A stretch of DNA of 64,000 nucleotides from Eledone cirrhosa (Eukaryota): assembly GCA_964016885.1 (NCBI GenBank), contig OZ024762.1:26536001-26600000 (forward strand). The letters run 5' to 3'. The translations under genes were made by a program, and so were the position numbers. The notes under the pieces are model-generated. The model had not been told where the DNA came from. It worked only from the letters and a program-made list of their open reading frames with translations, and searched no databases. Numbering within the stretch: the first letter of the stretch is position 1; every line of letters begins with the position of its first letter. Shown one piece after another: positions 2,450 through 41,008 of the stretch.

Positions 2450-2483
<34 letters not shown>

Positions 2484-2595
2484 TTGAAAAAAAATGAAAA
2501 CGAAATTTCATTTCTCACTCTTAGTATGGCACTTACTTAAATGTAAGTATGTATGTATACGTACATACATATATGTATACAGACGTACAGTAGCA

Positions 2596-2693
<98 letters not shown>

Positions 2694-2863
2694 TATACAC
2701 ATATGCATACAGGTACACATACATATATGCACGCATCAGTTTAGCCGACGTTTATTATAACGCCTGCTTTGTTCGTTTGTTTGTCAACAAATCGAACAGC
2801 CTGAATTTATGCCATACGGTGTTAAGGCAACCACGTCACCTTTTTGTTCAACACTTACACAGG

Positions 2864-2908
2864 AACGATGTACTAGTTTCAAGCTTGTTAGCTATCATCA
2901 CCACCGTT
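2864..2908 (-). ncRNA. Minimal type I hammerhead ribozyme, core mutated (GUGAUGA)
   Basis: Same as the 3402-3446 copy except C3 is changed to G. Confidence 0.65.
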
Positions 2909-3143
2909 TACCCATCTGCCAGATAGTTGAACGTTCGAAAGTATATACTTTCCTTATGAAAATTAACGGCTGAGCAGCCTAATTTGCATATTGAGTGAGT
3001 TAAATCGGTCAGGCATACCGAAAACGATAAGTTGAAATAAAATGAAAACGAAATTTCATTTCTCACTCTTAGTATGGCACTTACTTAAATGTAAGTATGT
3101 ATGTATACGTACATACATATATGTATACAGACGTACAGTAGCA

Positions 3144-3231
<88 letters not shown>

Positions 3232-3401
3232 TATACACATATGCATACAGGTACACATACATATATGCACGCATCAGTTTAGCCGACGTTTATTATAACG
3301 CCTGCTTTGTTCGTTTGTTTGTCAACAAATCGAACAGCCTGAATTTATGCCATACGGTGTTAAGGCAACCACGTCACCTTTTTGTTCAACACTGACACAG
3401 G

Positions 3402-3446
3402 AACGATGTACTAGTTTCAAGCTTGTTAGCTATCATCAGCACCGTT
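3402..3446 (-). ncRNA. Minimal type I hammerhead ribozyme
   Basis: Minus strand reads AACGGTG CTGATGA TAGCTAACAAGCTT GAAA CTAG TA CATCGTT: 7-bp stem I, intact core, stem II AGCT/AGCT, palindromic stem III ACTAGT, UA cleavage site. Confidence 0.85.
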
Positions 3447-3682
3447 TACCCATCTGCCAGATAGTTGAACGTTCGAAAGTATATACTTTCCTTATGAAAA
3501 TTAACGGCTGAGCAGCCTAATTTGCGTATTGTGTGAGTTAAATCGCTCAGGCATACCGAAAACGATAAGTTGAAAAAAAATGAAAACGAAATTTCATTTC
3601 TCACTCTTAGTATGGCACTTACTTAAATGTAAGTATGTATGTATACGTACATACATATATGTATACAGACGTACAGTAGCAA

Positions 3683-3725
<43 letters not shown>

Positions 3726-3963
3726 TATACACATATGCATACAGGTACACATACATATATGCACGCATCAGTTTAGCCGACGTTTATTATATCGCCACAT
3801 GTATATCTAATCACACGTACGTACGCGACTATATATATATATATATATATATACATACACACCCATACATACATATACATATACATATATATACATATAC
3901 ATATACATTCACCCACATACACACACACGTATAAATAAGTATGTAAAAAACATAGATATAAAA

Positions 3964-4000
<37 letters not shown>

Positions 4001-4389
4001 CGTACGCACGCACACATACGGAGGCGTTCGTATACATATACAGAACGTATACACACATATGCACACTCACACGCATAGATACAAATTATAAATAAATGAG
4101 TACAAATTATGAATAAATGAGTACAAATATAAAATCGGCTGCGAAACAACAGAATATATCAGGAGACGAAAACGCAAGTGACAGCGATATGAGGTAGTGA
4201 AAGAAAATGGGGAAGTAAAGTGTGGAATGTGAAAATATTAGGTAAGTGAATCAAAAAGTAGGGGGGGGGGGTCACTGGTGAGTGTGAAGTGAAAAAAAAA
4301 ATTAAATTAAAAATAAAGTTAAAAATGAAAGTAAATCAGAAAGAGAAGTCTGTAAAGAGGATAATTTAAGGAAAGTGAAGAACAAGAGT

Positions 4390-5462
4390 TTATGGAGGAT
4401 AAGTATCTGAAAGTGAGTTAAGTTTATATGAGCTGGAAAGTAAGTGTGATTTCATGTGTTGGCAACTGGTGAAAATTTCTGTTTTTGCGTTTAGGCAGGT
4501 TTTTGGTGATTTAAGGTTCTGTAAAATCCAATATTTTTCACTTATGCAGAGTGTGCATCTTCTTGTTCCTCTGGCATATTCTTTAGATTGGTTCAAAATT
4601 GCCCAATCCAATTTATATTGGATACCTTGGTCTTTCTGCTAGCCAGAGCTGTTGTGAATCTTTTTTCTGGATGTCGGAAAGATGCGACATGTGAGTAATA
4701 TAACGCGTTTTGAATTTGTCTTGTGTCATACCCACATGTCGTTTGCTGGTGGCTGGTAGGTTGTTGCTGATGGTTGTCACTTTAGCTGCTTATACAATGG
4801 CTTTGGTGTTGCATTTACCGTGTAATGGGCATTCACTTTTAACTCTACAGGAGCAATTTTGATGTTCTCTGGGTGTTTTCTTATTGATGATATAAGAAAT
4901 AATAGGGGGACCGCAGGAGTAGCTGATTTTGACACAGTTTCTATTGAAGATCTTATAGTATCTATGTGTTCTAGGGAAATGTTTATCTAAGAGCTCTAGA
5001 ATTTGTTGCCTACATTAGTTTTAACTGCTAAAGAGTAGGGGGTGTTAACCAGATTATTTTTCTTTTCCTGTGATTATGTTTAAAGGAGTTAGTATTGTTG
5101 GGTATGTACTTAATCGGTTCGCTAAATCCCCTATGTTGGAGGGCTTTATTATAGTAGGGGGATGCCTTATTGAAAATATCTTCTGAGGAAGAGAGGGTGG
5201 AGATCCTACGGCTAATATTAGGATAAGGTTTTTTTATATATTTTAAATTTTCATTAGGTTTATGGTACGGTTTATCAGAAGCAGTAGGCAGATCTAGGTT
5301 TATATCTAGAAAATTAACATGAGAAAGGATAGTGTCAATGGTAATTTTAAGATTAAAACTAGCGAAGGTTTTTATTAAGTCTTTCCTTAATCTATCTAAG
5401 TTATGGCCTATGGTGGTATGGGAAAGTATTAGACCATCGTCGCGGTAAAGCCCGTTAAACAC
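4390..5462 (-). mobile_element. Penelope-like retroelement fragment (RT C-terminus + GIY-YIG endonuclease), frameshifted
   Basis: GLYRDDGL, VNFLDINLDL, KPYHKPN, out-of-frame KHFPRTHRYYKIFNRNCVKISYSC, CSCRVKSECPLHGKC and C-terminal CTLCISEK...LNAKTEIFTSCQH match PLE motifs. Confidence 0.85.
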
Positions 5463-5683
5463 TTGCCTTTCTTGAGGAGATTTTTCAAATATATCACTAT
5501 ATTTTAAATTTCCTTGTCCGATGAACGAATGAGGACGTTTTTCGTATTCGTCTTATTTGGGAAAAGTCTGTTAATGAGGTAATTATATTGTATTATTTAT
5601 TATACATTAAATTTAGCTCTGCTACTTACATAGAGCATTCTTCACTACTATGACATTTTCAATTTTCAACGGAAACTTCAATA

Positions 5684-5739
<56 letters not shown>

Positions 5740-6018
5740 AGAAATCGTCTCTTCGACAATAATAGATAATTACTTGTTTCAATAACCGGACTGCAATCAT
5801 GCTCAGGCACTGGCATAAAATGAAGGGCTTTATTCTATCATATTAGCCCCAGTATTTTCTTTTTCTCAAGGTAGGTACTTTGTTTGTCGCTCACTTGTTT
5901 CCTAAGCCTAAGTTACGGGATATATATATAAAAATAGGAGACTTACATTCAAACATGTCCACACACATATAACCACATGCACACACACACATACACGCAC
6001 ACGCACACAGACACACAG

Positions 6019-6093
<75 letters not shown>

Positions 6094-6117
6094 TGTGTGT
6101 GTGTGTATATTTATATA

Positions 6118-6327
<210 letters not shown>

Positions 6328-6342
6328 AAGAGAGAGAGACAG

Positions 6343-6425
<83 letters not shown>

Positions 6426-6429
6426 TCTA

Positions 6430-6775
6430 TAGAAATTTCGTATTTCTAAAAAAACACGGTATGTTTACAGGGTTTTTCTATTCTATTGTAATTTGTGCCA
6501 ACTTATGCAGCTTCATATGCAAATGAGATTAATCACCTCATTTGCACAGACGAGAAAACTGTATATTCTCGACTGTTCACAAGTCCAGCAGTTGCAAGCG
6601 TGTGAGGGACCGTCCTGATGAAGACCAGTCAAGTCTGAAATGCATAGACGGTTCCCCGCCTTGCTTCTGCTGCACACGACCAGAGGGCGTTATCCCCGGT
6701 GTTTGCATAGCTATGGCTTCCTCGATGTTTTACCCTGTAAAGATACCGTGTTTCTTTAGAAATACCAAATGTTTA
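6430..6775 (+). mobile_element. Short element with ~45-bp imperfect terminal inverted repeats enclosing an octamer and a hammerhead (PLE pLTR/retrozyme-like)
   Basis: 6430-6473 gtatttctaaaaaaacacggtatgtttacagggt is the near reverse complement of 6731-6775; lies between microsatellites. Confidence 0.7.
6606..6655 (+). ncRNA. Minimal type I hammerhead ribozyme
   Basis: GGGACCGTC CTGATGA AGAC-cagtcaa-GTCT GAAA TGCA TA GACGGTTCC: 9-bp stem I with one GU, intact core, 4-bp stem II, palindromic stem III. Confidence 0.9.
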
Positions 6776-6802
6776 AAGCTAAATAATATTTCTATTATAT
6801 AT

Positions 6803-7002
6803 ATAGGAAAATGTTTAACTCCGACGACAGAGCTCAAGCCGTTTCGACGGCTATTTCCGGACGAGCCAGATATAGCCGTCGAAACGGCTTGAGCTCTGCC
6901 GTCGGGGTTAAACATTTTCCTATTACCCACTCTACTACACTAAGTATTGAGTACTCTATTGCGCTATGGTCCATCTGGTTCCTTACCACACTTCCTTCGT
7001 TA
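6803..7002. mobile_element. Fold-back hairpin + tail element (family G), copy 1
   Basis: ~120-bp hairpin 6803-6923 followed by an ~80-bp tail; homologous to 7061-7181, 14419-14585, 38585-38780, 38801-38992 and 44599-44995. Confidence 0.8.
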
Positions 7003-7006
7003 TATG

Positions 7007-7060
<54 letters not shown>

Positions 7061-7062
<2 letters not shown>

Positions 7063-7179
7063 AACAAGTATGACCCCGACAGCAGAGTTGAAGCCGTCTT
7101 GACGGCTAATTCTGGACTGAATTAGCCGTCTAGAATTGATGCGTTATGGTCCATCTGGTTCCTTACCACATTTCCTTCG

Positions 7180-7181
<2 letters not shown>
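7061..7181. mobile_element. Family G element, internally deleted copy
   Basis: Left arm and central GACGGCTAATT..AATTAGCCGTC stem joined directly to the tail tatggtccatctggttccttaccaca. Confidence 0.7.
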
Positions 7182-7216
<35 letters not shown>

Positions 7217-7217
<1 letters not shown>

Positions 7218-8851
7218 ACAAACCCTACAGGCAGAAATTTGGGACCGCTATGGGAACGAAAACAGCCCCCACTTATGCCAACCTAGTCATGGGATACCTG
7301 GAAATCACCCTCTACACTAAAGTCCTAAACAAATTTGGAAACACTCTCCACTTACACATAGAAAGGAACTGGAAGCGATATCTAGATGACTGCTTCATCC
7401 TTTGGCACGAAAACATCGAGAAACTTAAAGAATTTCACACCCTTATAAATGGGCTCAACACGAATATTAACTTCACGATGGAATACAGCCATCAACAACT
7501 CCCCTTCCTCGACATCCTCATTAAGATCCATAACAAAAAAAATAGAAACAGACATATACTACAAGCCCACAGACTCCAAGCAATATCTTCCTTTCAACTC
7601 TTGCCACCCTAGACACGTTAAAATTAATATTCCCTACAACTTAGCCAAGAGAATCTGTACTATAATCTCCAATAAAAACACCTGCTACTTACGGCTACAA
7701 GAACTAATTGACAATGGAATCCAACGTGCCCTAAAATTCAGTACCCAGGACCTTAGACACCCCAAAGTAAATCAACCGAAACTAAAAGCTCTTCCATACA
7801 TCTCCACACACAACCCCCTCAACAATGAGGCCTTTGACACCATCCTCCAGAACATCCCTGTGTTGAAAAAGGACCATAGAATGAACCAAATCCTACGAAC
7901 ACACGATATCATAAAACATCCTAACACATGCCAAAGTACTGCCAACCACAACAACGAAACCCACAGTAAAAAAAATGCGATAGACCGAACTGTGGCATTT
8001 GCATCAACCTAATAGAGGGTTCGGAATTCTATTTCAAAGAATGACAACGTTTTATAGTAAAACACAATTTCACATGCGCATCAGAAAATCTAATATATGT
8101 ATTAACTTGCTCAGGTTGTCGAGAACAATACATAGGCCAGACCAAAAACAGCCTCCGCCAACGCATGACTGTCCATAGATCCCAAATTAAAATACGGGAA
8201 TACAGGAAACTACCAGTGAGTGAACACATTGATACCTGTGCCGCCCAAAATCATCCCAACTTCAGAATCTTTCCCATCTACAAATTTAAAGATAATACCA
8301 CCCACACTCAGCGCATCAGCAAGGAATCTTACTTTATTAACAAATACGGACCCCGTCTAAACACTTCTCCCTAAGACGAACCCACAACATAAACACGTCA
8401 ACATACATACCTACATCAGCATAATCTCTACTCACATATAAACACAATGACATACGCAACACAAATATACACAAATTTGCATACCTTTTGATGTCTATAG
8501 ATATAAACGTGCCGACACAAACCTACATTCACATGACTTCTACCGACCAATCAAAATTGTTTTGACCACAAGAATTTTTGCAACACGAATTGGCGCAAAA
8601 CTTATTTTAATACCGCTGGAGCCACTTTTTTAACATAAAAACAGGTAGAATTCACAAAACTAATCAGATCAAAGCAAACATCACGGACGCTCTATCTCAA
8701 AATTATTTTTGAAAAGCATTTAGAAATGCGCAACCGGTAAAACTTAAAACCAAAGCTGAATACTAACCAATACTATTAGTAATTTCACTTATTATTCCTA
8801 ATTAAACTATTTTTCACTGTGAACAATTTGTCAGCATTTTCTTTTCCGTTT

Positions 8852-8853
<2 letters not shown>
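7217..8853 (+). mobile_element. Penelope-like retroelement (Neptune/Naiad-type), 5'-truncated: RT, Cys linker, GIY-YIG, 3' pLTR
   Basis: GTAMGTKTAPTYANL, WKRYLDDCF, LPFLDI, YYKPTDSKQYL..CHP, CDRPNCGIC, NLIYVLTCSGCREQYIGQT; frameshifts and a stop; 3' part 8664-8853 matches the 14973-15364 palindrome; both ends in (TA)n. Confidence 0.9.
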
Positions 8854-8920
<67 letters not shown>

Positions 8921-9055
8921 AGAGAGAGAATATATATATATATATATAGAATATATATCTATATCTATATCTCTCTCTATATATATATATAGAATATTTT
9001 TTGTATTTATGCCTAAAAATATATATATGTGCGTGTGTATATATATATATATATT

Positions 9056-9120
<65 letters not shown>

Positions 9121-9257
9121 CTCACAGAGTTTCAGAATATCCTGTTAAGTGTGAAAGCACCGATTCTTTGCTTAAACGTTAATCTGTTACTTTAATAAAT
9201 ATATATAAATATTAAAATATAAATATTAATAAAATAGATGTTCTTTTGATCAATTAC

Positions 9258-9310
9258 ATTTTATTATACATATTTCGGATGTACAACAGTACGTCATCAT
9301 CAGACAAAAT
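9258..9310 (-). ncRNA. Minimal hammerhead (family H), stem II partly decayed
   Basis: ATTTTGT CTGATGA TGACGTAC-tgtt-GTACATCC GAAA TATGTA TA ATAAAAT. Confidence 0.7.
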
Positions 9311-9579
9311 ATAATGATACATGACATACCCTGAGATGTTAAATGGTTAAGATTTCATCGAGGTAGTGATTAACCCGAGAGAAAATTTTACTTATTACCT
9401 AATTATGAGAAAATGCGAAAACGTAATAAATTTATTAGAGAATGTGTGAGTAAGAAAAAACGTTGCTTACTGTAACCGTTCTAAAAGTTTTTAAAATGTA
9501 TGATACTACTTCTTTGACATAATCATTGAATATCGTTTAACACTTTAATATATATATATAAATATATATATATATAAAT

Positions 9580-10325
9580 ATAGCACCCATCCGCCATCTG
9601 AGTGAGTTTCTTGGTCAGTGTCCAAGTCTCAGACCCATACAGCAGCACAGACTCCACTACAGCAATGAAGAGGCGGATTTTCAGGTCTCTACGAAGGTCC
9701 GGCTTCCACACCGATCTCAAGCTGTGGCACGCCTCCCAGGCCTTGCTCTTCCTCTCAACCACATCATCTTCCGTATTCCCAATCTTTGCTCCCAAATACA
9801 GGAAGCCCTCAACCAATTCTAGCGGCTTCCTTCCTACATTAGTGATCCCCTCTGGCTTCTCAACATTCTCTACCAGATATTTTGTTTTAGTCTCATTCAT
9901 TCTCAGCCCCACACTCATCGACATAGTCTCAACCTCCCGCATCAAATCCTCTGCCTCCTTCGCTGTATTTGACACCAAAACGAGAATGCTGAGGATGGCT
10001 CTCAACATTAATCAGTATACACTGAGGATGAAAAACTCAGAGCTGTATGGGAGCATCCCAAAAGTCAGCTCAAAAGTGACACAGACGAGACTGAGGTTAG
10101 CTGGACATGTTCACCGACATCCAGAGTTGACATTGCACTCAGTGCTCCTTTGGGAGCCACTACATGGACACACTAGAAGAGGAAGACCAAGGTTAACGTA
10201 TGTTGATGCCCTAAGGACAGACACTGGTCTGTTGGAGACGCAGGACATGGCAGCAATAATGAGGGACAGAGACCGCTGGAGAGAACTCGTCCATGGATGT
10301 CGGGAATTTTACCCGCCTTAGAAAA
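9580..10325 (+). mobile_element. RTE-clade LINE 3' fragment with inverted 5' part
   Basis: Minus 9580-9978 encodes GLRMNETKTK, FLYLG and SVLLYGSETWTLT...DGCY; plus 9980-10321 continues TRMLR...RLRLAGHVHR...RRGRPRLTY. Confidence 0.88.
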
Positions 10326-11479: not shown

Positions 11480-11511
11480 AAATGTAATCTGAGTTTTTCG
11501 AATATTAATAA

Positions 11512-11660
11512 CTTTTTCTACTTTGGGCACAAGGCCAGCAAATACCCAGTACATTACTGGTACTTTATTTTATCGACCTCTGTAAGGATGAAAGGCAAAG
11601 TTAACCTCGGCGGGATTTGAACTCAGATCGTAAAGGGACGTAACTATGCTGGCATAACAC
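11512..11660 (-). mobile_element. tRNA-derived SINE (octopod-type), partial
   Basis: ggcacaaggccagc..tactggtactttattttatcgac..aggatgaaaggcaaagttaacctcggcgggatttgaactc; B box GAGTTCAAATCC on the minus strand; many copies in the window. Confidence 0.85.
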
Positions 11661-11805: not shown

Positions 11806-11872
<67 letters not shown>

Positions 11873-11875
<3 letters not shown>

Positions 11876-11997
11876 AAATATTAAACAAATAATGAATAAA
11901 ACAATGAAACAGTTCCTTATATTAAACAAAAAAACTTTTTTTGTTTAATATAAGGAACTCTTTCATTGTTTTATTCATTATTTGTTTAATATTTTAT
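11873..11997. repeat. 125-bp near-perfect palindrome followed by a ~130-bp tail, flanked by (TA)n
   Basis: Arms centred at 11935. Confidence 0.85.
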
Positions 11998-12128
11998 CTT
12001 GACTCTGTATTCCGTTTATCTTTCACCGAAAGTGATTTTTCATTGCATCTCTTCTTTCCATGATATCCGGAATACATTGAGTTCTTCATACGGATTGGAC
12101 ACTACCGTAAACTCTTGGTAGATTTATC

Positions 12129-13195: not shown

Positions 13196-13203
<8 letters not shown>

Positions 13204-13806
13204 ATACTTTGGGAGGGTCATGTTGCCAATAAGAAACACACGCACCATTTGCTTTCACTTCAATTTATTATATATTTATAAATTTACAAATTTATAAATT
13301 TATAAATTTCTGGTTGGTTGGTTCCACAACCAGATAGTTGTTTATATATAGTCATAGTCCTTTCGTCACACTCTGTGACCTCTTCAGTGACTGGGGATTC
13401 CTTTCTTTGTTTCTGTGCCCCTCCTTTGTTCTGTCCTACGCTATTTTGTTTCTGTGTGTGTGTTGTGTGCTCAGTTTGCGCATGCGCCACATCCGCGTGT
13501 CTGTGTGTGTTTATGTTCATTTATCTATTTGTTTATTTATTTATTTATTTATTTACAGAGGTCACAGAGTGTGTGACGAAAGGACTATGACTATATATAA
13601 ACAACTATCTGGTTGTGGAACCAACCAACCAATCAGAAATTTATAAATTTATAAATTTGTAAATTTATAAATATATAATAAATTGAAGTGAAAGCATGGT
13701 GCGTGTGTTTCTTATTGGCAACATGACCCTCCCAAAGTATAACAATATCGGTTTCAACACACGATTTCAGATAAAGAATCTTGCTAAACAAATTCAGAAA
13801 CGAAAT
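13196..13806. mobile_element. Solo inverted PLE pseudo-LTR pair, same family as 39011-39460
   Basis: Arms 13196-13384 and 13557-13748 are inverted, with a tail to 13806; sequence matches the 3' region of the PLE at 39 kb. Confidence 0.85.
13350..13392 (-). ncRNA. Minimal type I hammerhead ribozyme in PLE pLTR
   Basis: AGTCA CTGAAGA G GTCACA-gag-TGTGAC GAAA GGAC TA TGACT: 5-bp stem I, 6-bp stem II, intact core. Confidence 0.88.
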
Positions 13807-13823
13807 ATATATATATATATATA

Positions 13824-13900
13824 AACGGAAAAAATGAAACGAAATTTCATTTCTCACTCTTAGTACGGCTGTTACTTAAATATAATTATGTACACGTACA
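13824..13900 (-). mobile_element. Short terminal fragment of the retrozyme-like family
   Basis: ggaaaaaatgaaacgaaatttcatttctcactcttagtacggctgttacttaaa, same left end as both arrays. Confidence 0.75.
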
Positions 13901-13954
13901 TACATGTATGTATACATACACTTATATATGTATACATACACATATATATATATA

Positions 13955-14048
<94 letters not shown>

Positions 14049-14271: not shown

Positions 14272-14418
14272 ACAATATAGACAGTTTTATAGATAAATAG
14301 ATTTGACATACCGTTCAACATCGACTTGTATTTGAGAAAGTTGATGTGTATATATATATATTTGAGAAAGTATATGTGTATATATATATATATAGAGAGA
14401 GAGAGAAAGAACAGAGTG

Positions 14419-14582
14419 GGGGTGGTAAGTTAACAAGCACTCTATACTTGGGGTAGTAGAGTGGGTAATATAAAAAGATTCAGGACCCCGACGGCTGAGC
14501 TTCGGCCGCTTCGATAGCTAGATCCGAACTGTCGGATCTAGCTGTCGAAACGGCCGAGGCTCAGTCGTCGGGGTCCTGAATC

Positions 14583-14585
<3 letters not shown>
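14419..14585. mobile_element. Family G hairpin + tail element (variant subfamily)
   Basis: Hairpin 14473-14585 centred on TAGCTAGATCCG..CGGATCTAGCTG, followed by GAAACGGCCG. Confidence 0.75.
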
Positions 14586-14937: not shown

Positions 14938-14972
14938 AAAGAATAGAGGTGTAACACACAAGTTATTATATA

Positions 14973-15360
14973 TTGGTAAACGGAATAGAAAATGCTGACA
15001 AATTGTTCACAGTTGAAAAATGGTTTAATTAGGAATAAAAGAGTATTAGTGATTGTATGGGTTAGTATTCAGTTGTGGTTTTAAGTTTTTAGGTTTTTAC
15101 CGGTTGCGCATTTCTAAATGCTTTTCAAAAATAATTTTGAGATAGAGTGTCCGTGCTGTTTGCTCTGATCAGAGTAAACAGCACGGACACTCTATCTCAA
15201 AATTGTTTTTGAAAAGCATTTAGAAATGCGCAACCGGTAAAAACTTAAAAACTTAAAACCACAACTGAATACTAACCCATACAATTACTAATACTCTTTT
15301 ATTCCTAATTAAACCATTTTTCAACTGTGAACAATTTGTCAGCATTTTCTATTCCGTTTA

Positions 15361-15364
<4 letters not shown>
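14973..15364. repeat. 392-bp near-perfect loopless palindrome of a PLE 3' end
   Basis: Centred on CTGA|TCAG at 15168/15169; arms match 8664-8853. Confidence 0.9.
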
Positions 15365-15408
<44 letters not shown>

Positions 15409-16695: not shown

Positions 16696-16920
16696 AGGTG
16701 AATCGGCTGCAATCGGTAGATCGACGGACAGATAATTGCTGTTCTTGTGCCAAAAGTAAAACTCGCTCGCTGTTTCAAAACATATTTACTTGCCATTATA
16801 CTTATTCAAATCCCGCCGAGGTTAACTTTGCCTTTCATCCTTACGGGGTAGATAAAATAAAGTACCAGTAATACACTGGAATAATTGCTGGCTTTGTGCT
16901 AAAAGTAGAAAGAATTATAC
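16696..16920 (+). mobile_element. tRNA-derived SINE pieces; related internally deleted heads at 16394-16470 and 17178-17255
   Basis: ttcaaatcccgccgaggttaactttgcctttcatccttacgggg..aaagtaccagt. Confidence 0.75.
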
Positions 16921-16947
16921 TTGCTTCTAATTTGAATAGAAAGCGAT

Positions 16948-17022
16948 GGGTTGTGTGTTTGTGTAATGGTAGCACAGTGGTCTGTATAACTAAAGACATG
17001 GGTTCGACTCCAATGTACATCA
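16948..17022 (+). pseudogene. tRNA-like sequence (pseudo-tRNA or SINE head)
   Basis: tgtaatggtagcac D-arm-like segment and ggttcgactcc T-loop at tRNA spacing; acceptor and anticodon stems poor. Confidence 0.4.
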
Positions 17023-18428: not shown

Positions 18429-18650
<222 letters not shown>

Positions 18651-18806
18651 ACTGCTCTGTAAATCATCTGATGTTTTTACATTGAGCTACTTAACTTACT
18701 GGTAATAAGGTAGTAATATATTACTGCCTACCACTATTTAGGGTTTGTATAAAAATATATATAACTGCAAAAGGTTTTCGTATTTACATAACCATAAATA
18801 GTATAA

Positions 18807-18991
18807 TTAATTGTTTCTACTATTGGCACAAGGCCAGAAATTACCCAGTACATTACTGGTACTTTATTTTATCGACCCCGTAAGGATGAAAGGCAAAGTC
18901 AACCTCGGCGCGATTTGAACTCAGAATGGCAAGGGCCGTAACTCTATGCGTCAAAGCATGGCGTCCGACCCTCTACCGATACTGCCAATCC
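18807..18991 (-). mobile_element. tRNA-derived SINE, near full length
   Basis: Same family as 11512; head tggattggcagtatcggtagag on the minus strand. Confidence 0.88.
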
Positions 18992-18999
18992 ATAATTAA

Positions 19000-19095
<96 letters not shown>

Positions 19096-19189
19096 GAAGA
19101 GAGAGAGATGTAGTTTCCGAGTAAAATGGGGAGGTAACCACAACTTAAAAAGGTAGATTAGTAGAGTGTAAGAATCATTATTTGATATA

Positions 19190-19580
19190 AGCAGTGGATT
19201 GGTAGAGATTGGAGAGCAGTGGATAGCAGTATCGGCAGAGAGTCAGATGCCATGCTTTGCAGCATAGAGTTACGCCCCTTTACGGTCTGAATTCAAATCC
19301 CACCGAGGTTAACTTTGCCTTTCATCCTTACGGGGTCGATAAAATAAAGTACCAGTAATGCACTAGGATAATTGCTGGCCTTGTGCCAAAAGTAGAAACA
19401 ATTATTTAATATAAAAGATTGTTCTATATTAAATAATTGTTTCTACTTTTTGGCACAAGGCCAGCAATACGCCAGTGCATTACTGGTACTTTATTTTGCC
19501 GACTCCGTAAGGATATAAGGCAAAGCTAAACTCGGTGGGATTTGAACTCAGAAGTTAAAGCGCACTAACAGTATGCCACA
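19190..19580. mobile_element. Tail-to-tail SINE pair (19190-19406 +, 19432-19580 -)
   Basis: Two family copies in inverted orientation about 25 bp apart. Confidence 0.85.
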
Positions 19581-19603
19581 AATCATTTCGTCGGAGGAAT
19601 AAC

Positions 19604-20685: not shown

Positions 20686-20874
20686 ATAGAACAATACTAC
20701 TATTCATATAATTCTATAATAAAAATGTCGGCTACCTCCAAATAGCTTCCATCATTCGTCTCTCAACTAATAACCTACGAGGAGGGCCAAGTGTTGTAGT
20801 TTTTTCGTCTCATATCATTTTAAATATTTCTATTCTTTAAACTACAAGGACGTTGTGTCGTCTTTCGGAAAACA

Positions 20875-23800
20875 AAGGGCGGATGATACTAGAATATTCT
20901 GGAGAAAATGTCGGCTACAGTGTAGAAAGGGCAGATGATACCAGAATATTCTGGAGAAAATGTCGGCTACTGTGTAGAAAGGCGGATGATACCAGAATAT
21001 TCTGGAGAAAATGACGGCTACAGTGTAGAAAGGGCGGATGATACCAGAATATTCTGGAGAAAATGTCGGCTACAGTGTAGAAAGGACGGATGATACCAGA
21101 ATATTCTGGAGAAAATGTCGGCTACAGTGTAGAAAGGACGGATGATACCAGAATATTCTGGAGAAAATGTCGGCTACAGTGTAGAAAGGGCGGATGATAC
21201 CAGAATATTCTGGAGAAAATGTCGGCTACAGTGTAGAAAGGACGGATGATACCAGAATATTCTGGAGAAAATGTCGGCTACAGTGTAGAAAGGACGGATG
21301 ATACCAGAATATTCTGGAGAAAATGTCGGCTACTGTGTAGAAAGGCGGATGATACCAGAATATTCTGGAGAAAATGTTGGTTGCAGTGTAGAAAGGGCGG
21401 ATGATACCAGAATATTCTGGAGAAAATGTCGGCTACAGTGTAGAAAGGACGGATGATACCAGAATATTCTGGAGAAAATGACGGCTACTGTGTAGAAAGG
21501 GCGGATGATACCAGAATATTCTGGAGAAAATGTTGGCTACAGTGTAGAAAGGGCGGATGATACCAGAATATTCTGGAGAAAATGTTGGTTGCAGTGTAGA
21601 AAGGGCGGATGATACCAGAATATTCTGGAGAAAATGTCGGCTACAGTGTAGAAAGTGCGGATGATACCAGAATATTCTGGAGAAAATGTCGGCTACAGTG
21701 TAGAAAGGGCGGATGATAACAGAATATTCTGGAGAAAATGTTGGTTGCAGTGTAGAAAGTGCGGATGATACCAGAATATTCTGGAGAAAATGTCGGCTAC
21801 AGTGTAGAAAGGGCGGATGATACCAGAATATTCTGGAGAAAATGTCGGCTACAGTGTAGAAAGGGCGGATGATACCAGAATGTTCTGGAGAAAATGTCGG
21901 CTACAGTGTAGAAAGGGCGGATGATACCAGAATATTCTGGAGAAAATGTCGGCTACAGTGTAGAAAGGGCGGATGTTACCAGAATATTCTGGAGAAAATG
22001 TCTGCTACTGTGTAGAAAGGGCGGATGATACCAGAATATTCTGGAGAAAATGTCTGCTACTGTGTAGAAAGTGCGGATGATACCAGAATATTCTGGAGAA
22101 AATGTCGGCTACAGTGTAGAAAGGGCGGATGATACCAGAATATTCTGGAGAAAATGACGGCTACAGTGTAGAAAGGGCGGATGATACCAGAATATTCTGG
22201 AGAAAATGACGGCTACAGTGTAGAAAGGGCGGATTATACCAGAATATTCCGGAGAAAATGTTGGCTACAGTGTAGAAAGGGCGGATGATACCAGAATATT
22301 CTGGAGAAAATGTCGGCTACAGTGTAGAAAGGGCGGATGATACCAGAATATTCTGGAGAAAATGTCGGCTACAGTGTAGAAAGGGCGGATGATACCAGAA
22401 TATTCTGGAGAAAATGTCGGCTACAGTGTAGAAAGGGCGGATGATACCAGAATATTCTGGAGAAAATGTCGGCTACAGTGTAGAAAGGGCGGATGATACC
22501 AGAATATTCTGGAGAAAATGTTGGCTACAGTGTAGAAAGGACGGATGATACCAGAATATTCTGGAGAAAATGTCGGCTACAGTGTAGAAAGGGCGGATGA
22601 TACCAGAATATTCTGGAGAAAATGTCGGCTACAGTGTAGAAAGGGCGGATGATACCAGAATATTCTGGAGAAAATGTCGGCTACAGTGTAGAAAGGGCGG
22701 ATGATACCAGAATATTCTGGAGAAAATGTCGGTTGCAGTGTAGAAAGGGCGGATGATACCAGAATATTCTGGAGAAAATGTCGGCTACAGTGTAGAAAGT
22801 GCGGATGATACCAGAATATTCCGGAGAAAATGTCGGTTGCAGTGTAGAAAGGACGGATGATACCAGAATATTCTGGAGAAAATGTCGGCTACAGTGTAGA
22901 AAGGGCGGATGATACCAGAATATTCTGGAGAAAATGTTGGTTGCAGTGTAGAAAGGACGGATGATACCAGAATATTCTGGAGAAAATGTCGGCTACAGTG
23001 TAGAAAGGGCGGATGATACCAGAATATTCCGGAGAAAATGTCGGTTGCAGTGTAGAAAGGACGGATGATACCAGAATATTCTGGAGAAAATGTCGGTTGC
23101 AGTGTAGAAAGGGCGGATGATACCAGAATATTCTGGAGAAAATGTCGGCTACAGTGTAGAAAGGGCGGATGATACCAGAATATTCCGGAGAAAATGTCGG
23201 TTGCAGTGTAGAAAGGGCGGATGATACCAGAATATTCTGGAGAAAATATTGGCTACAGTGTAGAAAGGGCGGATGATACCAGAATATTCTGGAGAAAATG
23301 TCGGCTACAGTGTAGAAAGGGCGGATGATACCAGAATATTCTGGAGAAAATGTCGGCTACAGTGTAGAAAGGGCGGATGATACCAGAATATTCTGGAGAA
23401 AATGTCGGTTGCAGTGTAGAAAGGGCGGATGATACCAGAATATTCTGGAGAAAATGTCGGTTGCAGTGTAGAAAGGGCGGATGATACCAGAATATTCTGG
23501 AGAAAATGTCGGCTACAGTGTAGAAAGGGCGGATGATACCAGAATATTCTGGAGAAAATATTGGCTACAGTGTAGAAAGGGCGGATGATACCAGAATATT
23601 CTGGAGAAAATGTCGGCTACAGTGTAGAAAGGGCGGATGATACCAGAATATTCTGGAGAAAATGTCGGCTACAGTGTAGAAAGGGCGGATGATACCAGAA
23701 TATTCTGGAGAAAATATTGGCTACAGTGTAGAAAGGGCGGATGATACCAGAATATTCTGGAGAAAATGTCGGTTGCAGTGTAGAAAGGGCGGATGATACC

Positions 23801-26800
23801 AGAATATTCTGGAGAAAATGTCGGCTACAGTGTAGAAAGGGCGGATGATACCAGAATATTCTGGAGAAAATGTCGGCTACAGTGTAGAAAGGGCGGATGA
23901 TACCAGAATATTCTGGAGAAAATATTGGCTACAGTGTAGAAAGGGCGGATGATACCAGAATATTCTGGAGAAAATATTGGCTACAGTGTAGAAAGGGCGG
24001 ATGATACCAGAATATTCTGGAGAAAATGTCGGCTACAGTGTAGAAAGGGCGGATGATACCAGAATATTCTGGAGAAAATGTTGGCTACAGTGTAGAAAGG
24101 ACGGATGATACCAGAATATTCTGGAGAAAATATTGGCTACAGTGTAGAAAGGGCGGATGATACCAGAATATTCTGGAGAAAATATTGGCTACAGTGTAGA
24201 AAGGGCGGATGATACCAGAATATTCTGGAGAAAATGTCGGCTACAGTGTAGAAAGGGCGGATGATACCAGAATATTCTGGAGAAAATGTCGGCTACAGTG
24301 TAGAAAGGGCGGATGATACCAGAATATTCTGGAGAAAATGTCGGCTACAGTGTAGAAAGGGCGGATGATACCAGAATATTCTGGAGAAAATGTCGGTTGC
24401 AGTGTAGAAAGGGCGGATGATACCAGAATATTCTGGAGAAAATGTCGGCTACAGTGTAGAAAGGGCGGATGATACCAGAATATTCTGGAGAAAATGTCGG
24501 CTACAGTGTAGAAAGGGCGGATGATACCAGAATATTCTGGAGAAAATATTGGCTACAGTGTAGAAAGGGCGGATGATACCAGAATATTCTGGAGAAAATA
24601 TTGGCTACAGTGTAGAAAGGGCGGATGATACCAGAATATTCTGGAGAAAATATTGGCTACAGTGTAGAAAGGGCGGATGATACCAGAATATTCTGGAGAA
24701 AATGTCGGCTACAGTGTAGAAAGGGCGGATGATACCAGAATATTCTGGAGAAAATGTCGGCTACAGTGTAGAAAGGGCGGATGATACCAGAATATTCTGG
24801 AGAAAATATTGGCTACAGTGTAGAAAGGGCGGATGATACCAGAATATTCTGGAGAAAATATTGGCTACAGTGTAGAAAGGGCGGATGATACCAGAATATT
24901 CTGGAGAAAATATTGGCTACAGTGTAGAAAGGGCGGATGATACCAGAATATTCTGGAGAAAATGTCGGCTACAGTGTAGAAAGGGCGGATGATACCAGAA
25001 TATTCTGGAGAAAATGTCGGCTACAGTGTAGAAAGGGCGGATGATACCAGAATATTCTGGAGAAAATATTGGCTACAGTGTAGAAAGGGCGGATGATACC
25101 AGAATATTCTGGAGAAAATGTCGGCTACAGTGTAGAAAGGGCGGATGATACCAGAATATTCTGGAGAAAATGTCGGCTACAGTGTAGAAAGGGCGGATGA
25201 TACCAGAATATTCTGGAGAAAATATTGGCTACAGTGTAGAAAGGGCGGATGATACCAGAATATTCTGGAGAAAATGTCGGCTACAGTGTAGAAAGGGCGG
25301 ATGATACCAGAATATTCTGGAGAAAATGTCGGCTACAGTGTAGAAAGGGCGGATGATACCAGAATATTCTGGAGAAAATGTCGGCTACAGTGTAGAAAGG
25401 GCGGATGATACCAGAATATTCTGGAGAAAATATTGGCTACAGTGTAGAAAGGGCGGATGATACCAGAATATTCTGGAGAAAATATTGGCTACAGTGTAGA
25501 AAGGGCGGATGATACCAGAATATTCTGGAGAAAATGTCGGCTACAGTGTAGAAAGGGCGGATGATACCAGAATATTCTGGAGAAAATGTCGGCTACAGTG
25601 TAGAAAGGGCGGATGATACCAGAATATTCTGGAGAAAATATTGGCTACAGTGTAGAAAGGGCGGATGATACCAGAATATTCTGGAGAAAATGTCGGCTAC
25701 AGTGTAGAAAGGGCGGATGATACCAGAATATTCTGGAGAAAATGTCGGCTACAGTGTAGAAAGGGCGGATGATACCAGAATATTCTGGAGAAAATGTCGG
25801 CTACAGTGTAGAAAGGGCGGATGATACCAGAATATTCTGGAGAAAATATTGGCTACAGTGTAGAAAGGGCGGATGATACCAGAATATTCTGGAGAAAATG
25901 TCGGCTACAGTGTAGAAAGGGCGGATGATACCAGAATATTCTGGAGAAAATATTGGCTACAGTGTAGAAAGGGCGGATGATACCAGAATATTCTGGAGAA
26001 AATGTCGGCTACAGTGTAGAAAGGGCGGATGATACCAGAATATTCTGGAGAAAATGTCGGCTACAGTGTAGAAAGGGCGGATGATACCAGAATATTCTGG
26101 AGAAAATGTCGGCTACAGTGTAGAAAGGGCGGATGATACCAGAATATTCTGGAGAAAATATTGGCTACAGTGTAGAAAGGGCGGATGATACCAGAATATT
26201 CTGGAGAAAATGTCGGCTACAGTGTAGAAAGGGCGGATGATACCAGAATATTCTGGAGAAAATATTGGCTACAGTGTAGAAAGGGCGGATGATACCAGAA
26301 TATTCTGGAGAAAATGTTGGCTACAGTGTAGAAAGGGCGGATGATACCAGAATATTCTGGAGAAAATGTCGGCTACTGTGTAGAAAGGGCGGATGATACC
26401 AGAATATTCTGGAGAAAATATTGGCTACAGTGTAGAAAGGGCGGATGATACCAGAATATTCTGGAGAAAATGTCGGCTACAGTGTAGAAAGGGCGGATGA
26501 TACCAGAATATTCTGGAGAAAATGTCGGCTACAGTGTAGAAAGGGCGGATGATACCAGAATATTCTGGAGAAAATGTCGGCTACAGTGTAGAAAGGGCGG
26601 ATGATACCAGAATATTCTGGAGAAAATGTCGGCTACAGTGTAGAAAGGGCGGATGATACCAGAATATTCTGGAGAAAATGTCGGCTACAGTGTAGAAAGG
26701 GCGGATGATACCAGAATATTCTGGAGAAAATATTGGCTACAGTGTAGAAAGGGCGGATGATACCAGAATATTCTGGAGAAAATGTCGGCTACAGTGTAGA

Positions 26801-29800
26801 AAGGGCGGATGATACCAGAATATTCTGGAGAAAATGTCGGCTACAGTGTAGAAAGGGCGGATGATACCAGAATATTCTGGAGAAAATGTCGGCTACAGTG
26901 TAGAAAGGGCGGATGATACCAGAATATTCTGGAGAAAATATTGGCTACAGTGTAGAAAGGGCGGATGATACCAGAATATTCTGGAGAAAATGTCGGCTAC
27001 AGTGTAGAAAGGGCGGATGATACCAGAATATTCTGGAGAAAATATTGGCTACAGTGTAGAAAGGGCGGATGATACCAGAATATTCTGGAGAAAATGTTGG
27101 CTACAGTGTAGAAAGGGCGGATGATACCAGAATATTCTGGAGAAAATGTCGGCTACTGTGTAGAAAGGGCGGATGATACCAGAATATTCTGGAGAAAATG
27201 TTGGCTACAGTGTAGAAAGGGCGGATGATACCAGAATATTCTGGAGAAAATGTCGGTTGCAGTGTAGAAAGGGCGGATGATACCAGAATATTCTGGAGAA
27301 AATGTCGGCTACTGTGTAGAAAGGGCGGATGATACCAGAATATTCTGGAGAAAATGTTGGCTACAGTGTAGAAAGGGCGGATGATACCAGAATATTCTGG
27401 AGAAAATGTCGGCTACTGTGTAGAAAGGGCGGATGATACCAGAATATTCTGGAGAAAATGTTGGCTACAGTGTAGAAAGGGCGGATGATACCAGAATATT
27501 CTGGAGAAAATGTCGGTTGCAGTGTAGAAAGGGCGGATGATACCAGAATATTCTGGAGAAAATGTCGGCTACAGTGTAGAAAGGGCGGATGATACCAGAA
27601 TATTCTGGAGAAAATGTCGGCTACAGTGTAGAAAGGGCGGATGATACCAGAATATTCTGGAGAAAATATTGGCTACAGTGTAGAAAGGGCGGATGATACC
27701 AGAATATTCTGGAGAAAATGTCGGCTACAGTGTAGAAAGGGCGGATGATACCAGAATATTCTGGAGAAAATATTGGCTACAGTGTAGAAAGGGCGGATGA
27801 TACCAGAATATTCTGGAGAAAATGTTGGCTACAGTGTAGAAAGGGCGGATGATACCAGAATATTCTGGAGAAAATGTCGGCTACAGTGTAGAAAGGGCGG
27901 ATGATACCAGAATATTCTGGAGAAAATGTTGGCTACAGTGTAGAAAGTGCGGATGATACCAGAATATTCTGGAGAAAATGTCGGCTACAGTGTAGAAAGT
28001 GCGGATGATACCAGAATATTCTGGAGAAAATGTCGGTTGCAGTGTAGAAAGGGCGGATGATACCAGAATATTCTGGAGAAAATATCGGTTGCAGTGTAGA
28101 AAGGGCGGATGATACCAGAATATTCTGGAGAAAATATCGGTTGCAGTGTAGAAAGGGCGGATGATACCAGAATATTCTGGAGAAAATGTCGGTTGCAGTG
28201 TAGAAAGGGCGGATGATACCAGAATATTCTGGAGAAAATGTCGGTTGCAGTGTAGAAAGGGCGGATGATACCAGAATATTCTGGAGAAAATATCGGTTGC
28301 AGTGTAGAAAGGGCGGATGATACCAGAATATTCTGGAGAAAATGTCGGTTGCAGTGTAGAAAGGGCGGATGATACCAGAATATTCTGGAGAAAATGTCGG
28401 CTACAGTGTAGAAAGGGCGGATGATACCAGAATATTCTGGAGAAAATATCGGTTGCAGTGTAGAAAGGGCGGATGATACCAGAATATTCTGGAGAAAATG
28501 TCGGCTACAGTGTAGAAAGGGCGGATGATACCAGAATATTCTGGAGAAAATGTCGGTTGCAGTGTAGAAAGGGCGGATGATACCAGAATATTCTGGAGAA
28601 AATGTTGGCTACAGTGTAGAAAGGGCGGATGATACCAGAATATTCTGGAGAAAATGTCGGTTGCAGTGTAGAAAGGGCGGATGATACCAGAATATTCTGG
28701 AGAAAATGTCGGCTACAGTGTAGAAAGGGCGGATGATACCAGAATATTCTGGAGAAAATGTCGGCTACAGTGTAGAAAGGGCGGATGATACCAGAATATT
28801 CTGGAGAAAATGTCGGCTACAGTGTAGAAAGGGCGGATGATACCAGAATATTCTGGAGAAAATGTCGGTTGCAGTGTAGAAAGGGCGGATGATACCAGAA
28901 TATTCTGGAGAAAATATCGGTTGCAGTGTAGAAAGTGCGGATGATACCAGAATATTCTGGAGAAAATGTCGGTTGCAGTGTAGAAAGGGCGGATGATACC
29001 AGAATATTCTGGAGAAAATATCGGTTGCAGTGTAGAAAGGGCGGATGATACCAGAATATTCTGGAGAAAATATCGGTTGCAGTGTAGAAAGGGCGGATGA
29101 TACCAGAATATTCTGGAGAAAATGTCGGTTGCAGTGTAGAAAGGGCGGATGATACCAGAATATTCTGGAGAAAATGTCGGTTGCAGTGTAGAAAGGGCGG
29201 ATGATACCAGAATATTCTGGAGAAAATGTCGGTTGCAGTGTAGAAAGGGCGGATGATACCAGAATATTCTGGAGAAAATATCGGTTGCAGTGTAGAAAGG
29301 GCGGATGATACCAGAATATTCTGGATAAAATGTCGGCTAAAGTGTAGAAAGGGCGGATGATACCAGAATATTCTGGAGAAAATGTCGGCTAAAGTGTAGA
29401 AAGGGCGGATGATACCAGAATATTCTGGATAAAATATCGGTTGCAGTGTAGAAAGGGCGGATAATACCAGAATATTCTGGAGAAAATATCGGTTGCAGTG
29501 TAGAAAGGGCGGATGATACCAGAATATTCTGGATAAAATGTCGGCTAAAGTGTAGAAAGGGCGGATGATACCAGAATATTCTGGAGAAAATGTCGGTTGC
29601 AGTGTAGAAAGGGCGGATGATACCAGAATATTCTGGAGAAAATATCGGTTGCAGTGTAGAAAGTGCGGATGATACCAGAATATTCTGGAGAAAATGTCGG
29701 TTGCAGTGTAGAAAGGGCGGATGATACCAGAATATTCTGGAGAAAATGTCGGCTAAAGTGTAGAAAGGGCGGATGATACCAGAATATTCTGGATAAAATA

Positions 29801-38550: not shown

Positions 38551-38584
<34 letters not shown>

Positions 38585-38586
<2 letters not shown>

Positions 38587-38780
38587 CGAAGGAAATGTGG
38601 TAGGGAACCAGATGGACCATAACGCACCAAAGTACTCAATACTTAGCGTAGTAGAGTGGGTAATAGGAACTAGTAGGACCCCAACGGCTGAGCTCAAGCC
38701 GTTTCGACGGCTATTTCAGTCCAGAATTAGCCGTCGAAACGGCTTGAGCTCAGGCGTCGGGGTCCTACTCGTTCCCATAT
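38585..38780. mobile_element. Family G tail + hairpin element
   Basis: Opposite orientation to 6803-7002; (TA)n on both sides. Confidence 0.82.
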
Positions 38781-38800
38781 ATATATATATATATGTATAT

Positions 38801-38992
38801 ATAGGAAAAGAGTCAGGAACCGACGGCTGAGTTCCGGCCGTTTCGACAGTTAGATCCGTACCCACGTTCAGATCTAGATGTCAAAACGGCAGGAGCTCAG
38901 CCGTCGGGGCTCTGATCCTTTTTTCCCTATCACCCACTCTACTACCCTAAATATCGAGTACTCCTTGTTCCTTACCAAAATTTCTTTGTTTA
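38801..38992. mobile_element. Family G variant hairpin + tail element
   Basis: Diverged arms; same subfamily as 14419-14585. Confidence 0.75.
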
Positions 38993-39010
38993 TATATATA
39001 TACATATATA

Positions 39011-40465
39011 TTTCGTTTCTGAATTTGTTTACAAGATTCTTTATCTGAAAACGTGTGTTGAAACCGATAGTGTTATATTTTGGGAGAGTCATGTTGCCAA
39101 TAAGAAACACACGCACCATGCTTTTACTTCAATTTATTATAATAAATTTATAAATTTAGGAATTTATTAATTTCCGGTTGGTTGGTTGGTTCCACAACCA
39201 AATGATTGTTTATATATTGTCAAAGTTCTTTCGTCACACATTCTGTGAACTCTTCAGTGACTGGGGATCCTTTTCTTTGTTTTTGTGCCTCTCCTTTGTT
39301 CTGTCCTACGTCATCTTGTTTTTGTGTGTGTTGTGTGCTTAGTTTGCGCATGTGTTACATCAGGGTGTCTGTGTGTGTTTATATTTGTTTTTTTATTTGT
39401 TTATTTACATGTTACTGCTTGGTTGTTTGTTCTATGTGCGTGTGTGTTTTCATTTTGTCCTTAATTGTAAGTTGTGATGTTGCTGTTCCACTCATGTTTT
39501 CTATTTAATTTTGGTTGGAGTTCATTTATGTTTATTGCCTCTGTGATTTGTCTAAACATTGCGTCTTTTCTGTGTGTAGATTCTATTTTTATTTCTATGT
39601 TCTCTAATTTACCCTTATGTTCTATTTTAGCATGTTGGTAGAGTACAGATGATTCTTTACTATCTTGAAGCTCTCGCCAGTGTTCATTTATCCGTTCGCC
39701 TATACTACGAGCTGTCTCACCTATGTACACTATATTCTTATCTCTACATTGTCCTTCAGTACATCTTATGCTATATACTACATTTCTAGTTTTACAGTTA
39801 ATATGGGGGCTTAATTTACAGATTATACATTTCTTATCTTTACAGGGAGGTCTTTGAAAAGGGTATGTATTTCTGATAAATCTTTTTATGGGGGTACCTG
39901 GTCTTTCTACTATCTTAATATTGAGTTTATGTTTATCTAGAGCCTTTTTAAATTTGTAAGCTAATTCACCTCTAGGGGTTTTATCGATGAACATTACACT
40001 TTGGTATTTATTGCTATCATAGCATGAGTTTATTCAATTAACCTTATTCCTAGTTCTTTCTATTCTATTCCAAAATTTGCTCCTATACAAGGGGCAGGTC
40101 CCATTTGTGTCATTATTTACCATTTTCCCCATTTGGTTCTGGCTCCTCTATATACTCTGATTCTATATCTCTGATTGTAACCAGAGAACTGCATACGGTG
40201 GATGAAGTGTTGTATGTGTCACTCTAGTTCTTCGGGGTTGCACATGCGGGACACGTTTCTCATCACCCGTACCAAATCCGCAATCAGTATGTTGATTTTG
40301 GTATGGTCCGAAACAGCTGAGTTTCGGTGGATCAGATATTTGGAAGTCATGGGTTTGGCATAATGGGAATGGAGGATTTGTTTTTTGTTATTAATGGTAT
40401 CTAACCAGAGGTCTGTGTCTAGTACAGGTAATCGATGGTTGGGGTGTTTGCTTGGGGAGTCTACA
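39011..40465 (-). mobile_element. Penelope-like retroelement, 5'-truncated: RT thumb, Cys linker, GIY-YIG and 3' pLTR with hammerhead
   Basis: RLPVLDTDLW and HYAKPMTSKY upstream; ORF 39461-39994 has CKDKKCIIC, CKTRNVVYSIRC..C..YIGETARS..ER..EH, RQITEA..I, PKLN. Confidence 0.9.
39219..39261 (-). ncRNA. Minimal hammerhead in PLE 3' pLTR
   Basis: GTCA CTGAAGA GTTCACA-gaatg-TGTGAC GAAA GAAC TT TGAC; about 200 nt after the GIY-YIG stop. Confidence 0.75.
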
Positions 40466-40823: not shown

Positions 40824-41001
40824 GTTATTCCGGGTTGAAACGGAGGTAACCACAGTAAGTAAGGTACTCAATACATAGCAGAGTATAACAGTTTTAATAT
40901 AGAAGAGATTCTACAGGACTAGAACTGTTTCATTCATAAGAAATCATCAGGATTCCTGATGATTTCTTATGAATGAAACAATTCTAGTCCTGTAGAATCT
41001 C

Positions 41002-41008
<7 letters not shown>
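40821..41008. mobile_element. Tail + 111-bp palindrome element in (TA)n
   Basis: Palindrome 40898-41008 centred at 40953, just 5' of CTGATGA; related fragment near 2386-2412. Confidence 0.8.

Follow-up and report, generated by a model that had tools for sequence, protein, structure and literature searches.

A hammerhead-bearing solo monomer in the genome of Eledone cirrhosa: probable retrozyme-like origin and a candidate octamer–TATA promoter

In a 64,000-nt window of the Eledone cirrhosa genome (GCA_964016885.1, contig OZ024762.1, positions 26,536,001 to 26,600,000 of the forward strand; all positions below are numbered from the first letter of this window), a hammerhead ribozyme motif lies a short distance downstream of an octamer, and both are bracketed by inverted ends. 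This raises the question of what kind of mobile element the arrangement represents, and whether it arose once or repeatedly. We conclude that the locus is probably a decayed solo monomer from a retrozyme-like element that is non-coding and multi-copy, likely moved by Penelope machinery and likely kin to the tandem hammerhead family of the same window.

The window is AT-rich and filled with microsatellites, and includes ORF fragments of Penelope-type reverse transcriptase (RT) and GIY-YIG endonuclease as well as a long LINE ORF. Broken Penelope-type RT-endonuclease ORFs extend over 7121–8560 (forward strand) and about 4480–5630 (reverse strand), and the RT fragment at 7220–7555 has its best named homologues in Argonauta (68%), Mytilus (64%) and Octopus bimaculoides (63%). 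A search for a related locus with a Penelope protein found none, nor did a search for homologues of the GIY-YIG fragment among longer proteins. The LINE-type ORF, uninterrupted over 1141 codons with RT and zf-RVT matches, occupies 56521–59946 on the reverse strand. Satellites at 20874–35740, 43217–44411 and 50658–54366 comprise a 52-bp unit repeated 286 times (96%), a 69-bp unit repeated 17 times and an (AACC)-type array. A SINE-like repeat is present in many copies, often as inverted pairs (11502–11651, 16789–16922, 18802–19586, 47834–48610 and 56103–56287), with a weak tRNA match (16952–17022; 28.1 bits, below threshold) beside one of them.

The motif at 6606–6655 is a type I hammerhead on the forward strand with a minimal palindromic stem III. 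Each part described in the earlier note (a 9-bp stem I, an intact CUGAUGA/GAAA core and an AUGCAU stem III) could be located:

6606–6614 and 6647–6655, forward: stem I, nine pairs including one G-U
6615–6621, forward: core CUGAUGA
6622–6625 and 6633–6636, forward: stem II, canonical, four pairs with a 7-nt loop
6637–6640, forward: GAAA
6640–6645, forward: palindromic AUGCAU, stem III being one pair plus the palindromic loop
6646, forward: A, the predicted cleavage base

All parts of a type I hammerhead are thus present, from the core (CUGANGA, GAAA, UH) and the first two stems to a stem III that is closed, and the cut remains predicted after 6646. A strict hammerhead descriptor produced a single match in the 39.6 kb of unmasked window and none in 200 Markov simulations of equal length; the motif exceeds chance. 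The fold of the 63-nt hammerhead fragment has a z-score of −3.3. At −10.3 kcal/mol, or −15.7 when stem III is left out, the active fold falls short of the most stable fold of the monomer (−17.5 kcal/mol), which is expected because stem III needs a partner. Dimer-type hammerheads with a short palindromic helix III are described in PMC4209133. An Rfam scan of the window returned no hammerhead family among the 150 of 172 matches listed, which were microsatellite-driven miRNA models below their gathering scores.

Relatives of the element were sought in public sequencing data. Of the seven runs that the search listed, four carry part of the stretch; these four stem from no more than two samples of a single study, and no RNA run was listed as carrying it, which says nothing about expression. 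Their contigs, whose library type is not recorded, were aligned to 6400–7000 at 80% likeness. The element is multi-copy, because 113–120 contigs in runs X1 to X3 carry a letter at 6544 that differs from this copy. In X1, summed depth, which depends on the drift of this copy and is no copy number, reached about 165,000 over the octamer region, 26,000–69,000 over the hammerhead and 3,000–10,000 over the arms. The majority state includes a compensatory stem II pair (A-U to G-C) formed by 6624 A to G and 6634 T to C (26168 of 27945 and 38094 of 40216 in X1 depth), and a T to C change at 6619, a tolerant position and the only core change among the 40 of 80 difference rows listed. By inspection, majority letters at 6603, 6654, 6655 and 6658 suggest that stem I in most relatives has seven pairs rather than nine and comes with an internal loop and another helix. 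The small inverted repeat surrounding the octamer (6518–6527/6537–6546) forms 10 of 10 pairs in the 6475–6788 copy and 9 of 10 in most relatives, where 6544 is A (G to A in 99.8% of X1 depth). Hence the "very clean" stem I and the perfect small inverted repeat, both correctly described for this copy, are contradicted as family traits by the majority letters.

The boundaries of the element bear on how it moved:

6424–6473, reverse: left arm, an inverted copy (86%) of 6732–6781, without tail and adjoining a (GA)n/(TA)n run
6475–6788, forward: inferred monomer, 314 nt, 42.7% GC, no ORF of at least 120 aa inside
6732–6781, forward: right arm, taken to be the 3′ region of the element itself
6757–6775, forward: terminal hairpin, decayed in the right arm and intact in the left arm
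6782–6796, forward: one-sided tail of about 15 nt, ending in an 8-nt repeat and followed by (TA)n

The inverted ends are real, and at 50 nt they are slightly longer than the ~45 bp first assigned to them. With 86% complementarity around 258 nt they have the appearance of terminal inverted repeats, and a long stem forms when the entire stretch is folded (z −10). One could thus regard the locus as a MITE that captured a fragment of a retrozyme or Penelope terminal repeat and spread by cut and paste, and other copies do connect the hammerhead with the right arm (record 4 of X1, with 26 other letters, and record 15 of X2). We consider this origin unlikely. Among the eight pieces listed per run, no long contig enters the left arm; they begin at 6475, 6476, 6493, 6497 or later, one of them with about 560 unaligned letters upstream. 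The left arm is thereby suggested to be specific to this copy. The 3′ side of the element closes with a repeat of the monomer start: the repeat 6475–6486/6789–6800 gives the 314-nt period, and over 30 starts the chance of the eight matching nucleotides (6789–6796 against 6475–6482) is about 0.006. The flanks of the element show no direct repeat of at least 6 nt; a 2–3 nt duplication could hide in their TA-rich sequence, as could a TA duplication inside (TA)n.

The same false inverted ends are seen in a Penelope-type hammerhead terminal repeat of the window (13196–13826 and 38988–40033; cores at 13387 and 39257, reverse strand), which is present once behind a GIY-YIG ORF and once as a solo repeat with an inverted truncated copy. 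Here, 13196–13539 matches at 86% the hammerhead-bearing repeat (39067–39407) of the GIY-YIG element at 39067–40033, and 13557–13826 is an inverted truncated copy of the former (90%) with a one-sided extension. This layout makes true terminal inverted repeats the less likely reading of our element too. Penelope-like insertions, according to 10.1101/2021.04.23.441226, carry an inverted 5′-truncated copy that produces flanking inverted repeats, a tail at one end and a (TA)n bias. The element lies between (TA)n runs, in an AT-rich target without a regular duplication, and 6424–6796 is best read as a Penelope-type insertion composed of an inverted truncated copy, one monomer and a short tail in (TA)n. 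Its tail of about 15 nt compares with the 30–40 nt described for Penelope-like insertions. Near-perfect inverted duplications or palindromes adjoin (TA)n elsewhere in the window (10330–10428/10935–11033, 11870–12000, 14967–15370, 18561–18650 and 40900–41005), two of which contain CTGATGA without a full hammerhead by scan; these are possibly further Penelope-type inverted ends. The 3′ end of the element adjoins a short repeat of very high abundance that has long palindromic cores and ends in (TA)n (6797–7060, 7040–7214, 14349–14585, 38551–39011 and 44540–45014), for which the summed run depth is far higher.

A second set of hammerheads in the window belongs to a tandem family of head-to-tail, ORF-less arrays:

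2481–3796, reverse: array 1, a partial unit and two full units, 3′ end in (TA)n
2901 and 3439, reverse: hammerhead cores of array 1, the first with C3 changed to G
41040–41996, reverse: array 2, with two octamers (41428, 41854) and two hammerhead cores (41340 and, carrying an altered core base, 41767)
13823–14047, reverse: 3′-end fragment, ending in (TA)n at the same site as the arrays

All three insertions of this family end at one site in (TA)n. The earlier note had seen no visible similarity between the element and this family beyond octamer and hammerhead, and had taken their layout to have appeared twice independently. The alignments contradict the first claim. Colinearity with the tandem family spans about 140 nt of the element from octamer to hammerhead and takes in the sequence between these motifs; the element is also the best non-self match (E 0.021) of an nhmmer profile built from four tandem copies; a profile of the inter-motif segment alone places it at E 4.3 over the window. 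Whole-interior alignments to the copies at 2729–3030 and 3267–3568 score 49 compared to 21.8 ± 3.4 for shuffled sequences, a score reached by none of 500 shuffles, and those to the two copies near 41 kb score 29 and 32, reached by 23 and 6 of 500 shuffles. For the segment from the inner repeat to stem I, both motifs excluded, the score is 28 against a shuffle mean of 13, with none of 2000 shuffles reaching it for the same two copies of array 1; the copies near 41 kb (212 and 83 of 2000 shuffles) are not clearly above the shuffles. A 42-nt block at 6553–6594, chosen after alignment, finds its top two matches among ~128,000 window positions in two tandem copies (28 of 42; next best 24).

Beyond the known promoter motifs, the likeness extends to loop II, the post-cleavage stem and a terminal 3′ hairpin with a common core in both families. 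The distance from the hairpin core to the next octamer is 57 nt in the element and 60, 60, 56 and 56 nt in the tandem copies. Taken alone, the hairpin match is weak: it holds for the left arm only, where 62 and 76 of 2000 shuffles do as well (p ~0.03–0.04). The downstream halves show hardly any alignment, their score being reached by 9–124 of 2000 shuffles. Overall similarity as judged from these alignments is modest, but the element and the tandem family likely have a common ancestor: though each piece is modest, common ancestry is the simpler reading because order and spacing agree around the whole unit.

The alternative is that two unrelated hammerhead elements converged on the same spacing of octamer, TATA and hammerhead through the demands of a Pol II promoter. 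Besides the low overall identity and the poorly aligning downstream halves, this idea draws on the TATA-like and start-site-like letters in block 6553–6594, which function could fix, and on the precedent of newt satellite 2, whose internal snRNA-type Pol II promoter is cited in PMC2220036. We nevertheless judge it quite improbable, given the likeness outside the promoter motifs with its conserved order and spacing, and given the other hammerheads of the window. A relaxed scan detected nine hammerhead-like sites. Four belong to the lineage of the element and the tandem family, with an exact octamer in three and one mismatch in the fourth; four are from other families (13387, 14264, 40485 and 40721), none of which has an octamer with fewer than two mismatches 30–130 nt upstream; and the last, a weak site at 2005, has a reversed one-mismatch octamer match. 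Since the octamer-bearing sites all belong to one lineage, this window shows no second, independent occurrence of the layout, and the claim of two origins finds no support. The third hammerhead family (40485, forward; 40721, 14264 and 9303, reverse) is characterized by an AT-rich stem I and a palindromic TA-type stem III; two of its copies lie opposed on either side of a (TA)n run, and an octamer is found upstream in 0 of its 3 scored sites.

The element is closest to the metazoan non-LTR retrozymes (Cervera and de la Pena 2020, PMC7229834; Li, Clavereau and Pollet 2026, 10.64898/2026.07.22.740005). As described in these papers, such retrozymes carry a type I hammerhead, are non-coding, have units of 150–450 nt with a GC content under 45–50%, and are multi-copy alongside Penelope-like elements, all of which the element resembles; solo monomers form a recognised class, and mussel retrozymes provide a mollusc precedent. 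Unlike typical retrozymes, the present copy is a single monomer next to an inverted arm instead of a tandem. Unit-length RNA and circles were shown for coral, mussel and axolotl retrozymes (PMC7229834). Li et al. (10.64898/2026.07.22.740005) take at least two consecutive hammerhead units as the criterion for an active retrozyme. With its single unit, the locus is classed here as a solo copy rather than an active element; a single-hammerhead copy is likely a dead end.

Comparison with Penelope-like elements (PMC4209133, 10.1101/2021.04.23.441226, PMC11167929 and PMC2377424) reveals the same hammerhead with a short palindromic helix III suited to dimers, the same inverted 5′-truncated copy with a tail at one end, an AT-rich or (TA)n target and a 3′-end stem-loop; the element differs in having no ORF, a shorter tail and a canonical 4-bp stem II in place of the minimal motif with a 5′ bulge. 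It is very improbable, however, that it is a solo pseudo-LTR (5′ UTR plus promoter) of an autonomous Penelope-like element and not a free-living retrozyme, a reading that differs from ours solely in whether an ORF-bearing parent still exists: although such repeats bear a type I hammerhead and mostly persist as lone truncated copies (PMC4209133), retrozymes derive from pseudo-LTRs (10.64898/2026.07.22.740005) and Penelope RT and GIY-YIG fragments lie nearby, no ORF-linked repeat of the window matches the element, and its relative builds ORF-less head-to-tail arrays. Neither an autonomous partner with the terminal repeat of the element nor a tandem copy of its own subfamily was seen.

Upstream of the hammerhead, the retrozyme-like monomer carries a set of motifs that may constitute a promoter:

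6517–6524, forward: octamer ATGCAAAT, inside a 13-nt context at 6515–6527
6537–6546, reverse: inverted octamer-like site, perfect here, with A at 6544 in most relatives
6553–6594, forward: block common to the tandem family, 28 of 42 ungapped
6560–6567, forward: TATA-like run, TATATATT once 6561 takes the majority letter

The octamer, on the same strand as the hammerhead, had been placed about 80 nt upstream of it; it lies 81 nt ahead of stem I and 98 nt ahead of CUGAUGA, and the chance of an exact same-strand octamer in a given 41-nt range of this window is ~0.005. Its 13-nt context, which we take to resemble POU2 binding sites, matches the tandem family at 12 of 13 positions, and no majority difference falls on the octamer among the 40 of 80 difference rows listed. 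The tandem family has a degenerate inverted octamer-like site at the corresponding place. In both families this site falls between the octamer and the TATA-like run, which starts 42–43 nt after the octamer start. At 6561 the majority letter (G to A) improves the TATA run and moves towards the tandem family; those at 6578–6579 move away from it, for a net 27 of 42. In immunoglobulin and histone H2B promoters, the octamer lies at about 70 and TATA at about 30. Counting about 30 nt from the TATA-like run would place a start site near 6590. Judging from this arrangement, the octamer dyad and TATA block make a plausible Pol II promoter, and one that may function, at somewhat less than even odds. 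Pol III terminates at T-runs, and Pol III read-through was rejected because T-runs interrupt both the element (T4 at 6474 and 6728) and the tandem unit (T8). Other families appear to place other promoter motifs at a similar distance from the hammerhead, as suggested by the sequence of the Penelope-type terminal repeat, where GCGCATGCGCA, which resembles an NRF1-type site, lies about 90 nt upstream of the ribozyme.

The promoter of newt satellite 2 uses an octamer and a proximal sequence element (PSE). Its hammerhead unit of about 330 nt, which acts as a dimer (PMC2114352), contains a snRNA-type Pol II promoter (Coats, Zhang and Epstein 1994, as cited in PMC2220036). The element is similar in carrying an octamer; unlike in the newt, its partners are an inverted octamer-like site and a TATA-like run, and no PSE was recognised that the two window families share. 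TCACC at 6533 was considered as such a PSE and rejected, as it occurs in the element and is absent from the tandem family.

From these features we tentatively propose that cephalopod retrozymes own a Pol II promoter, an inverted POU/octamer pair plus TATA, kept across diverged subfamilies. Transcription would start ~25 nt before the hammerhead core, the ribozyme would trim the capped leader, and reverse transcription from a point 35–39 nt upstream of the next octamer would rebuild the promoter. In tandem copies, Pol II would be set going near 6590 by the two inverted octamer-type sites and the TATA-like run that follows 42–43 nt on. The palindromic stem III of one unit's hammerhead would then pair with that of the next, giving the dimer form; cleavage after A6646 would take off a leader of ~57 nt and free a unit-length RNA able to circularise. 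Folded as a circle, the monomer has a z-score of −3.5 with 60% of its bases paired, partly owing to the hammerhead stems. A Penelope RT/endonuclease might copy this RNA from a site just past the 3′ hairpin; the 3′ end of the element lies 35 nt ahead of the equivalent octamer, and the array 1 junction 39 nt ahead. Under this proposal a full-length copy would begin with an intact promoter, because copying starts 35–39 nt upstream of the next octamer. Finally, ends resembling terminal inverted repeats would arise when such a copy inserts into (TA)n together with a second copy that is truncated and inverted.

Copying of retrozymes by Penelope RT has been proposed by Li et al. (10.64898/2026.07.22.740005). 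The protein of the anole Penelope element begins reverse transcription in a stem-loop and cuts AT-rich DNA. Several published results argue against the cycle as we outline it: eight of nine Xenopus retrozyme dimers showed no cleavage (10.64898/2026.07.22.740005), hammerhead cleavage was dispensable for insertion of the anole element in vitro, and the promoter of D. virilis Penelope is internal and TATA-less, unlike the TATA-like upstream block of the element.

We also looked for the arrangement beyond this genome. The octamer-TATA-core pattern hit 38 loci in metagenome contigs, none with a hammerhead fold, and the octamer-hammerhead pattern hit 120 loci in the 17 of 64 parts of the viral contigs scanned, one of them with minimal stems. 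BLAST of these 158 loci against the element gave nothing at E below 0.01, and the family hammerhead pattern had no match in viral contigs. The matches in metagenome and viral contigs are chance only. Animal retrozymes are reported to be strongly transcribed. As searched here, PMC7229834 and 10.64898/2026.07.22.740005 name no promoter elements for them, and neither main text mentions a conserved octamer dyad with a TATA block. More generally, the literature searched yielded no description of such a block for retrozymes or for Penelope repeats, although supplements or older papers may hold one. Ribozyme-carrying retroelements as such are already known from many animals, and an internal promoter in a hammerhead repeat was already reported for newt satellite 2.

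The present locus illustrates that Penelope-type insertions can pass for MITEs in annotation. If the promoter reading fails, the element is an ordinary decayed repeat. What makes that reading precisely testable is the promoter-like block kept between two otherwise far-drifted subfamilies. If true, it would explain how a retroposon retains an external promoter, in parallel with newt satellite 2, and the family would disperse paired POU-factor sites across the genome.
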